Below, piece after piece: positions 33,621 through 34,103 of a stretch of DNA of 64,000 nt (its first letter is position 1; each line of letters opens with the position of its first letter). A program made the translations under genes and the position numbers. Source of the DNA: Thermodesulfobacteriota bacterium. Its GTDB lineage: Bacteria; Desulfobacterota_D; UBA1144; Nemesobacterales; CSP1-2. The DNA lies in NCBI GenBank assembly GCA_035559815.1, contig DATMAT010000057.1:6359-70358 (forward strand), written 5' to 3'. A model generated the notes under the pieces. It was not told where the DNA came from. It saw nothing but the letters and a program-made list of their open reading frames with translations, and searched no databases.

Positions 33621-34103
33621 CTAAACAAAACAGATGCCCCCATATCCGGGTAGCGTCACAGTGGAACAGGACGCACCGACAAAGGGAATCGGAACACAAA
33701 TTCTATTTCTGCAGAGGCAGGGAGTAGTAGAGAAAAATGTCATAATTGCAGTTCCGGCGATCTGTCCCGATACGCTCGATGTGCGTGCTATAGCGCCCGG
33801 CATATATGCAATCAAGTTACGATCACATTGGCAATCAAGATATCCGCGGCGACCGTAGCAGAGGTCATGTTCCCTACATACTGCATCGACTGCGTCTATG
33901 GGCGGTGTATTTCCGGTTGGATCACCGAATCCGGGCCCGCAGTAATTGCCGTAAACCGGGACGCTGAGTTGTTGCGGCAATACCGGATCTTGTTTGGAGC
34001 GTAGGTTTATCTTTACGCCTTTATTGTCAATGCCGTAACGCTTTATTTGCCTGCCTAAGCTGGCCTCCGCTTTAAATCCTGGCACCTTGTTCATTTCATT
34101 CAA
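33621..34103 (-). CDS. Leader-family precursor protein, member 2, with a secretory-PLA2-like core
   Basis: The leader is M(NEM)NKVPGFKAEASLGRQIKRY (the likely start is the second ATG at 34094). The core carries YGNYCGPGFG (Ca-loop-like) and DAVDAVCREHDLCY (CCxxHDxCY-like His/Asp dyad). It has 10 Cys. Confidence 0.8.
   Translation of the reverse strand: MNEMNKVPGFKAEASLGRQIKRYGIDNKGVKINLRSKQDPVLPQQLSVPVYGNYCGPGFGDPTGNTPPIDAVDAVCREHDLCYGRRGYLDCQCDRNLIAYMPGAIARTSSVSGQIAGTAIMTFFSTTPCLCRNRICVPIPFVGASCSTVTLPGYGGICFV

Follow-up and report, generated by a model that had tools for sequence, protein, structure and literature searches.

A secretory phospholipase A2-type domain behind the leader of a Cys-rich peptide family in a Thermodesulfobacteriota bacterium

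Closest described systems

Two kinds of described system bear on the gene considered here: the secretory phospholipases A2 (sPLA2s) and the leader-guided maturation of peptides that are made on ribosomes and modified after translation (RiPPs). The gene lies on a 64,000-nucleotide stretch from a Thermodesulfobacteriota bacterium (contig DATMAT010000057.1, positions 6,359 to 70,358), which we call the window and in which all its coordinates are counted. The encoded protein has an sPLA2-type domain behind a leader shared with neighbouring Cys-rich precursors, and the gene is linked to genes for an S8 protease and for a protein with the PatG domain of unknown function (DUF). The PLA2 gene and its neighbours in the leader array are all on the minus strand. 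We argue that it encodes a pro-enzyme built like a ribosomal-peptide precursor, from which the leader would be cleaved to give an exported, Ca2+-dependent phospholipase toxin. We give this reading a probability of roughly 60%.

Among known sPLA2s the plant group XI enzymes (rice, 2WG7) come nearest by both sequence and structure. They carry the motifs YGKYCGxxxxGC and DACCxxHDxC, 12 Cys and a Sec signal peptide, and their third catalytic residue is His, Asn or Ser (PMC6635587). Relative to the rice enzyme (OssPLA2) the window PLA2 lacks the GC, the first C of the CC and the signal peptide. Its third catalytic residue is Asp, its conserved core disulfides are predicted to number two, and it has an added Cys-rich beta-hairpin tail. 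Two traits are animal-like, namely the Tyr that follows HDxC and the Asp of CxCD. An earlier, sequence-only reading of the window had likened the catalytic motif to that of the group I, group II, conodipine and parvoviral enzymes; the sPLA2 type stands, but the plant group is nearer than groups I and II.

The pancreatic group IB pro-PLA2 also has an N-terminal extension, CxCDRN and HDxCY, and there removal of the extension by a serine protease frees the native N-terminus on which full interfacial activity depends. Its propeptide is 7 residues long, follows a signal peptide and is cut by trypsin outside the cell, whereas the window leader is 41 residues long, is shared with unrelated peptides and would rely on a cytoplasmic-looking PatA-type protease. 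The window protein may nevertheless be analogous to a zymogen. The group XIV sPLA2 of Streptomyces violaceoruber is likewise bacterial, has two disulfides and is secreted and Ca2+-dependent. However, it is exported by Sec and is of a different sequence family, whose Phospholip_A2_3 model leaves the window protein unmatched. The parvovirus VP1u PLA2 (group XIII) has YxGPG and HDxxY in common with it, and the gathering score of the viral model is passed, but the match spans only profile positions 4-39 of 80, and the viral domain has no cysteines and is part of a capsid protein. As far as its sequence can say, the window PLA2 does not belong to group XI, group XIV or the parvoviral type by their defining features.

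Cyanobactin maturation also involves a PatA-type protease and the PatG DUF, and its several precursor genes encode hypervariable cores after a conserved leader. PatA has the recognition site G(L/V)E(A/P)S. In contrast to cyanobactin pathways, the window-type protease and DUF are encoded apart, by genes on either side of a conserved 70-residue gene. The cores here are about 25-440 residues long and of disulfide type, one of them is an enzyme, and the hosts are mostly not cyanobacteria. No PatG macrocyclase, heterocyclase or prenyltransferase is conserved in the loci, and the leader logo contains neither G(L/V)E(A/P)S nor AYDG. The other parallel is ElxP of the epilancin 15X pathway. This cytoplasmic lanthipeptide S8 protease recognizes (D/E-5)(L/V-4)x2(Q-1) (PMC10885120), with a hydrophobic residue at -4 and Gln at -1, and the leader here ends in (V/I)-x-P-Q. 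Unlike in that pathway, no LanB, LanC or other modifying enzyme is conserved here, and the S8 protein is of the PatA branch. Judged by its gene content, the system resembles leader-dependent RiPP or bacteriocin maturation with cyanobactin-type parts but fails the definition of a cyanobactin pathway. In the open-access literature, whose silence is not proof of absence, we find no description of the leader, the small protein, the operon, cyanobactin-like systems outside cyanobacteria or bacterial PF00068 proteins.

The PLA2 precursor, its leader family and the linked genes

The sPLA2 signature Y-G-x-Y-C-G-x-G is present as YGNYCGPG at residues 48-55. The second signature, C-x-x-H-D-x-C followed by the Asp of helix 3, is present as CREHDLCY and CQCDRNL, the latter a motif that the sequence-only reading had not listed. 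The sequence-only reading had pointed to this Ca2+-binding loop and catalytic His/Asp motif, and both hold up: the residues invariant in 31 homologues are G49, C52, G53 and G55 of the Ca2+ loop together with Cys73, His76, Cys79, Tyr80, Cys90 and Asp91. A phmmer search of all PDB chains has rice sPLA2 (2WG7/8/9) as its best match (E=1e-3), and nearly all of the 60 listed matches are PLA2s or parvovirus capsid proteins. A profile of the 31 homologues reaches E=1.4e-6 in the PDB, and all 43 of its matches are PLA2s. The Pfam alignments proposed as a check in the earlier reading came out mixed. Phospholip_A2_4 (PF08398, parvoviral type) matched above its gathering score (24.4 against 23.9 bits, E=3.6e-5), Phospholip_A2_1 (PF00068) matched at E=3e-6 but below its cut-off, and Phospholip_A2_3 (prokaryotic/fungal) gave no match at E<=1. 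Significant profile matches to PLA2 families, on which that reading had staked its claim, are therefore found both in Pfam and for the family profile.

The HMMER alignment pairs D91 with the Asn of rice CNENLL. We take CQCDRNL to match pancreatic CNCDRNAAICF, which holds Asp99. If the canonical sPLA2 pattern is assumed, the four conserved Cys would form the 29-45 and 51-98 disulfides. An AlphaFold2 (AF2) model on the 31-homologue alignment has a predicted local distance difference test score (pLDDT) above 90 across most of residues 61-150 and disorder in residues 1-42. Its helices span 68-83, 88-104 and 108-123 and are followed by a C-terminal beta-hairpin. In a viral structure library parvovirus VP1 proteins head the listed matches, yet none reaches E<=0.001. 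The domain has an sPLA2-type fold, on the strength of these alignments and signatures it belongs to the sPLA2 superfamily, and its resemblance to PLA2s goes beyond chance.

The mechanical open reading frame (ORF), 33621-34103 on the minus strand, begins at an in-frame TTG at 34103 and encodes 160 residues. The start is probably the downstream ATG at 34094 (MNKVPGF..., 157 residues); AAGGAG lies 9 nt upstream of it, and the 157-residue NCBI protein P0001, a hypothetical protein of a Thermodesulfobacteriota metagenome-assembled genome (MAG), is identical. The leader of this protein contains PGFKAEASL (34056-34082), the conserved Tyr20 and, at residues 38-41, the junction VLPQ (33972-33983). Five Cys lie in the PLA2 core and five in the tail. 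The tail is confined to PLA2s of the leader type, and in the AF2 model most of it has pLDDT >90. One candidate origin for the tail (PCxCRxRxCxxxPFxG..C), an ancestral short core like the C-termini of the siblings, is not supported: in 27,288 ORFs and proteins a hidden Markov model (HMM) of the tail picks up no precursor above noise other than PLA2s.

The N-terminus M..(K)xPGFTAE.S(L/V)Y(K/R)(T/S)...Y is common to nine minus-strand ORFs between 33180 and 40041. This bears out the earlier claim that the PLA2 domain sits behind a leader common to Cys-rich siblings. The leader HMM scores the PLA2 ORF at E=4e-14; the ORF deviates at position 8, where K replaces T, and at position 14, where G replaces Y. 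A logo of 219 precursors reads M-(N/K)-(M/I/L)-P99-G78-F97-T69-A95-E81-A59-S88-L76-Y59-(K/R)-(T/S)-x3-Y83, and after a spacer rich in S, G and A it has a second block, V/I(89%)-x-P69-Q73(A19, M6). The second block stands at a fixed 34 residues after the Pro of PGF (5th-95th percentile 32-36), and information content falls to background right past it.

The leader is not hydrophobic. Its maximal Kyte-Doolittle value over 10 residues has a median of 0.71 in 233 leaders and is 0.42 in the PLA2 leader, while the controls OmpA, PhoA and PAK pilin give 2.7-3.4, the two Sec signal peptides among them 2.7-2.8. Low hydropathy rules out a Sec/Tat signal peptide. It also rules out a type IV prepilin leader (G|FTLIE), to which PGFTAE bears a superficial likeness.

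The leader profile has 39 positions and was built from 13 leaders. With it a word-indexed search finds 1,041 proteins at E<=10, most of them 60-75 residues long and, in the C-terminal half, hypervariable and Cys-rich. When 1.84 billion proteins are searched exhaustively, at least 2,521 representatives are found at E<=1e-3. In these the leader match is mostly N-terminal, and most are 60-110 residues long with an even number of Cys. One apparent member, P0243 (3,189 residues), was rejected as a eukaryotic VWD/TIL false positive. Among 232 precursors from genome loci the median length is 88 residues (5th-95th percentile 64-194, maximum 480). Their cores are hypervariable and mostly Cys-rich. Both the median and the mode of core Cys are 6, the count is even in 92% and a multiple of four in only 47%, which fits disulfides better than Cys4 metal sites.

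Other enzyme payloads were looked for with Pfam in 66 long precursors, and the only matches are to Stig1, a Cys-rich domain, and one weak match to TrAA12; nine more long family members have no Pfam domain. The plant Stig1 domain is matched by four long precursors, and the sizes are far above those of usual RiPP or bacteriocin cores. Very long leader precursors of Cys-rich repeats (321-480 residues) are encoded at 37030-37995 (minus strand) in the window and in three other loci (L048 7249-8721, L058 11074-14633 and L061 7654-9843). NCBIfam has no model for the leader peptides or the PLA2 precursor, and Pfam has none for the other precursors.

The S8 protein has its best PDB matches in the cyanobactin proteases PagA and PatA (E about 1e-30), and the macrocyclases PatG and PagG score far lower (4e-14). 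The DUF protein matches the PatG DUF structure 4UVQ. Together the two cover positions 1-179 and 276-597 of the PatA/PatG model of NCBIfam, and by this coverage the pair is a split PatA. Between them lies the small protein, a CGGC protein of about 70 residues with the consensus RVRLPGF..EEIGLGDxIKR...GIKPCGGCERRAAALNRW and no Pfam or NCBIfam match. A motif search finds it in 54 of 84 loci (for example L002 8572-8781 and L005 2490-2705). Its RLPGF resembles the MPGF of the leader, and it might mimic the leader or act as an adaptor or regulator.

The order S8 - small protein - DUF - precursors repeats on unrelated contigs. One-genome-per-species assemblies were scanned with the DUF protein as sole query, and the best 80 loci were kept for counts. 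A DUF relative is confirmed on at least 438 genome stretches from many phyla. In the best 80 (L006-L085) it is 62-79% identical to the window copy, which is unusually high across phyla from Acidobacteriota to Cyanobacteria, Nitrosomonadales and Spirochaetia. This suggests strong constraint together with frequent horizontal transfer of the operon, as far as protein identities can indicate. Leader ORFs are found in 78 of the 80 loci. There are 232 of them; the same strand carries 228, and for 152 of 156 the position is downstream of the DUF gene. Exactly one S8 gene, PatA-like and not PatG-like, is present in 75 of the 78, always upstream of the precursors. In an all-against-all ORF clustering of 84 loci, with a length cut-off above the size of the small protein, nothing besides S8, DUF and precursors is common to more than six loci. 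Most loci are from Acidobacteriota. The other hosts include Nitrosospira multiformis, Nitrosomonas, Nitrosovibrio, Nitrotoga, Methylobacter luteus, Edaphobacter modestus DSM 18101, Pseudanabaena, Brocadia, Nitrospira, Chloroflexota, Spirochaetia, Verrucomicrobiae, Flavobacteriaceae and Actinomycetota.

More than 320 homologues of the window PLA2 are present in public data, and they are of two kinds. The majority are about 180 residues long, are named in Rubrobacter and Rubrobacteraceae MAGs, and have a Lys/Arg-rich N-terminal region and no Cys-rich tail. In the loci examined they are stand-alone chromosomal genes with no S8 or DUF genes near. The stand-alone proteins (P0014-P0120; loci L086-L089) have no signal peptide and a hydrophobic C-terminus, and in L086-L088 the gene is flanked by those for a heavy-metal P-type ATPase and a CAP-domain protein. 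The minority kind, 17 clusters among those fetched, has the PGFTAE-type leader and the Cys-rich tail, and five of the 17 have an extra Cys-rich spacer ahead of the PLA2 domain. In a midpoint-rooted neighbour-joining tree of 113 PLA2 cores (17 leader-type and 96 stand-alone) the leader-type sequences are monophyletic. Core identities average 66% among leader-type sequences, 82% among stand-alone ones and 63% across the two types. Since the leader-type PLA2s form one clade, the tree points to a single fusion or capture event, which could have run in either direction.

A leader-type PLA2 occupies the precursor slot behind S8, small protein and DUF at four independent loci (the window, L005, L090/L091 and L092), and the PLA2 motif is found in none of the 80 DUF-fetched genome loci. 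The PLA2 therefore appears, from its distribution, to be a rare enzyme cargo of single origin in a family of Cys-rich peptides and proteins. The earlier idea of a payload-swapping system survives in part: the leader fronts at least 2,521 distinct hypervariable cores, but the PLA2 is the only enzyme payload found and belongs to a single clade.

In the window, a truncated S8 paralogue stands directly upstream of the PLA2 gene. It is without the last ~40 residues, and the 14 residues with which it finishes (FPFLVTKMSPYYDR) are those that close the PatG-DUF protein. A deletion at an 'EFP' microhomology seems to have fused a duplicated S8...DUF unit. The catalytic Asp, His, Asn and Ser motifs are kept, with GTS changed to ETS. 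No second S8 gene is seen in the other loci of the 78, and a syntenic relative whose PLA2 is 69% identical (L001) is without this remnant.

The protoxin proposal and its alternatives

In the mechanism that we propose the S8 protease would bind the leader and cut it after VLPQ(41). Recognition would involve the N-terminal PGF(T/K)AE.SL(Y)...Y and the C-terminal (V/I)-x-P-Q junction. We place the cut after Gln41 because the conserved P4 (V/I), P2 (Pro) and P1 (Gln/Ala/Met) are the positions that a subtilase cleft reads. A PatA-like site within GFTAEAS was rejected as the cut, since conservation runs ~30 residues further and stops at PQ. Until it is removed the leader would keep the enzyme inert in the producer, and the reducing, low-Ca2+ cytoplasm would have the same effect. 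Described sPLA2s need uM-mM Ca2+ and a native N-terminus for full activity and are sensitive to one extra N-terminal residue (PMC6635587). The product would be 116 residues long (42-157), and outside the cytoplasm its 10 Cys would pair into 5 disulfides. It would then hydrolyse phospholipids as a Ca2+-dependent toxin beside its Cys-rich peptide siblings, presumably against competing microbes or predators. We infer export from the even Cys counts of the cores and from the extracellular chemistry of sPLA2s. In this sense the family may well be secreted, as the sequence-only reading had it, but the leader is not a signal peptide and no transporter is conserved next to the system.

Several observations weigh against this proposal. 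The PF00068 score is 28.1 bits against a cut-off of 32.1, and Foldseek of the model against the PDB returns nothing significant and no PLA2. No transporter, immunity gene, disulfide catalyst or modifying enzyme is conserved beside the system in the 84-locus clustering. None of the S8, DUF and small proteins has a signal peptide, so cleavage would be cytoplasmic, which is hard to square with an oxidatively folded toxin. The stand-alone Rubrobacter-type PLA2s keep ITPQQL just before the core. This resembles the leader junction, and the junction motif could therefore be a part of the PLA2 domain and not a cleavage site. Finally, the truncated S8 fusion beside the PLA2 gene may be inactive.

The first alternative keeps the domain and reinterprets the leader. 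It would be a tag for targeting, left intact by the S8 protease encoded nearby, and could serve export through an unlinked transporter, the loading of vesicles or the binding of a partner. Other tasks, such as regulation or C-terminal processing, would then fall to the S8, DUF and small proteins. The lack of a linked transporter suits this scenario, and no function is known for the PatG DUF in the cyanobactin pathways themselves (PMC4259220). The RLPGF of the small protein also echoes the PGF of the leader, which suggests competition or mimicry over simple proteolysis. However, the S8 protein is nearest to proteases that remove leaders, the P4/P2/P1 pattern at the leader-core boundary suits a subtilase cleft and matches the ElxP motif, and a single S8 gene per locus is always placed ahead of the precursors. 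We consider a tag that is never cut unlikely.

The second alternative concerns catalysis. The protein could be a catalytically dead PLA2-like scaffold, comparable to the Lys49/Asn49 myotoxin homologues or otoconin, that binds or disrupts membranes or acts as a binding module. HN replaces HD in 20 of the 96 stand-alone relatives, which implies that the broader family tolerates loss of the Asp that is a Ca2+ ligand. The PF00068 shortfall and the presence of two conserved disulfides, where 5-7 are usual in sPLA2s, also fit a dead scaffold. Against this, HD is kept in 17 of 17 leader-type proteins, the His, the Asp99 equivalent and the glycines of the Ca2+ loop are invariant in the aligned family, and the window protein has the Tyr52 equivalent. 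The active Streptomyces sPLA2, for comparison, has just two disulfides (PMC6635587). We regard loss of catalysis as improbable.

A third alternative is that no member of the family leaves the cytoplasm, where the Cys-rich peptides might, for example, bind metal, and that the PLA2-like member is an intracellular protein and no toxin. This would agree with the want of a signal peptide and a linked exporter and with processing proteins that look cytoplasmic. Yet the Cys counts are even and not multiples of four, with a mode of six, and a conserved leader followed by hypervariable cores is what secreted antimicrobials under diversification typically show. The catalysis of sPLA2s needs Ca2+ levels and disulfides that are unavailable in the cytoplasm, and this too counts against a cytoplasmic family. 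It has little chance of being correct. It is close to impossible that a Cys-rich protein has come to resemble PLA2s through a chance match of motifs, for although Foldseek gives no PLA2 and the single-sequence E-values are modest, the family profile with its 43 PLA2 matches refutes it.

If the protoxin proposal is true, a folded enzyme serves as the core peptide and the leader logic of ribosomal peptides extends to an sPLA2. A leader that is usual on short Cys-rich peptides here carries a 116-residue enzyme, and this blurs the line between a RiPP or bacteriocin precursor and a zymogen. Machinery for maturing peptides seems to have been co-opted for the delivery of an entire enzyme that attacks membranes. 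PLA2 chemistry, with its Ca2+, disulfides and membrane substrate, is also the best pointer at hand to a role outside the cytoplasm for the leader family, which is apparently unannotated. The domain adds a bacterial branch of the eukaryote- and virus-type sPLA2 fold that is distinct from group XIV and minimal, with two conserved core disulfides and an animal-like catalytic network. More tentatively, and at a little short of even odds, we propose an undescribed and very widespread leader-guided maturation system, of which the PLA2 gene would be the most informative member. It would consist of a split PatA-type protease, the DUF and the CGGC protein and would serve thousands of disulfide-rich peptides, one clade of which has a folded sPLA2 protoxin. 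Nitrifiers, methanotrophs and acidobacteria in culture, among them Nitrosospira, Nitrosomonas, Methylobacter and Edaphobacter, have the system, which makes it testable, and the cyanobactin DUF gains a second, simpler genetic context in which its function can be worked out.

Feature coordinates and neighbouring genes

Table 1. Positions of the PLA2 precursor, its parts and the linked genes in the window
Feature	Coordinates	Strand	Evidence and details
PLA2 precursor gene	33621..34094	-	157 residues plus stop (33621-33623)
Leader, residues 1-41	33972..34094	-	Logo of 219 precursors; AF2 disorder in residues 1-42; non-hydrophobic
Ca2+-binding loop YGNYCGPGFGD, residues 48-58	33921..33953	-	Conservation; PDB and profile alignments
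Catalytic helix DAVDAVCREHDLCY, residues 67-80	33855..33896	-	His76/Asp77 equivalent to pancreatic His48/Asp49; Tyr80 to Tyr52
CQCDRNL, residues 88-94	33813..33833	-	Cys90/Asp91 equivalent to animal sPLA2 Cys98/Asp99
C-terminal Cys-rich beta-hairpin tail, residues 125-157, 5 Cys	33624..33722	-	AF2 strands 125-136 and 140-151
Leader precursor directly downstream of the PLA2 gene, 118 residues	33180..33536	-	Shared leader
Truncated S8 paralogue directly upstream of the PLA2 gene	34119..34925	-	71% identical to the S8 protease at 41599-42510
Seven further leader precursors	36682..40041	-	39658-40041, 39178-39597, 38749-39135, 38442-38768, 38065-38403, 37030-37995 (321 residues), 36682-37005
PatG_D + PatG_C (cyanobactin DUF) protein, 331 residues, N-terminal CPTCG motif	40062..41057	-	Pfam; PDB 4UVQ
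Conserved 72-residue protein (RVRLPGF..EEIGLGDAIKR..GIKPCGGCERRA..LN.W)	41200..41418	-	Missed by the ORF lister
PatA-type S8 protease, 303 residues, no signal peptide	41599..42510	-	Pfam Peptidase_S8; PDB; TIGR03895 positions 1-179

The precursor array is broken between 34925 and 36682 by four small ORFs of 77, 112, 109 and 97 residues (35269-36539, minus strand). One of them has an AF2212-like domain (PF01954) and the other three have no Pfam match. They may be inserted modules of toxin-antitoxin or mobile type. About 6-14 kb from the array are genes for a 941-residue TPR-CHAT protein (24567-27392, plus strand) and for two large beta-propeller proteins of the YNCE/NHL/lactonase-like kind (19805-24127, plus strand). 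Between these and the array lie a zf-HC2 anti-sigma-like gene and a GerE-type regulator, and the regulator and an AMP-binding ligase gene are syntenic in L001.

The S8 gene has immediately upstream, on the same strand, genes for a luciferase-like monooxygenase and a radical SAM protein (42754-44869, minus strand). They are probably not parts of the system because they are not conserved in the other loci examined, although they might still tailor peptides in the window alone. In an Anaerolineae MAG (L056 9635-10915) the PatG-DUF protein shares its frame with a leader-like N-terminus (RFPRFNAEAALGR..Y), at a weak E=0.24. Two genes may have fused here, or the stop between neighbours may simply be absent.

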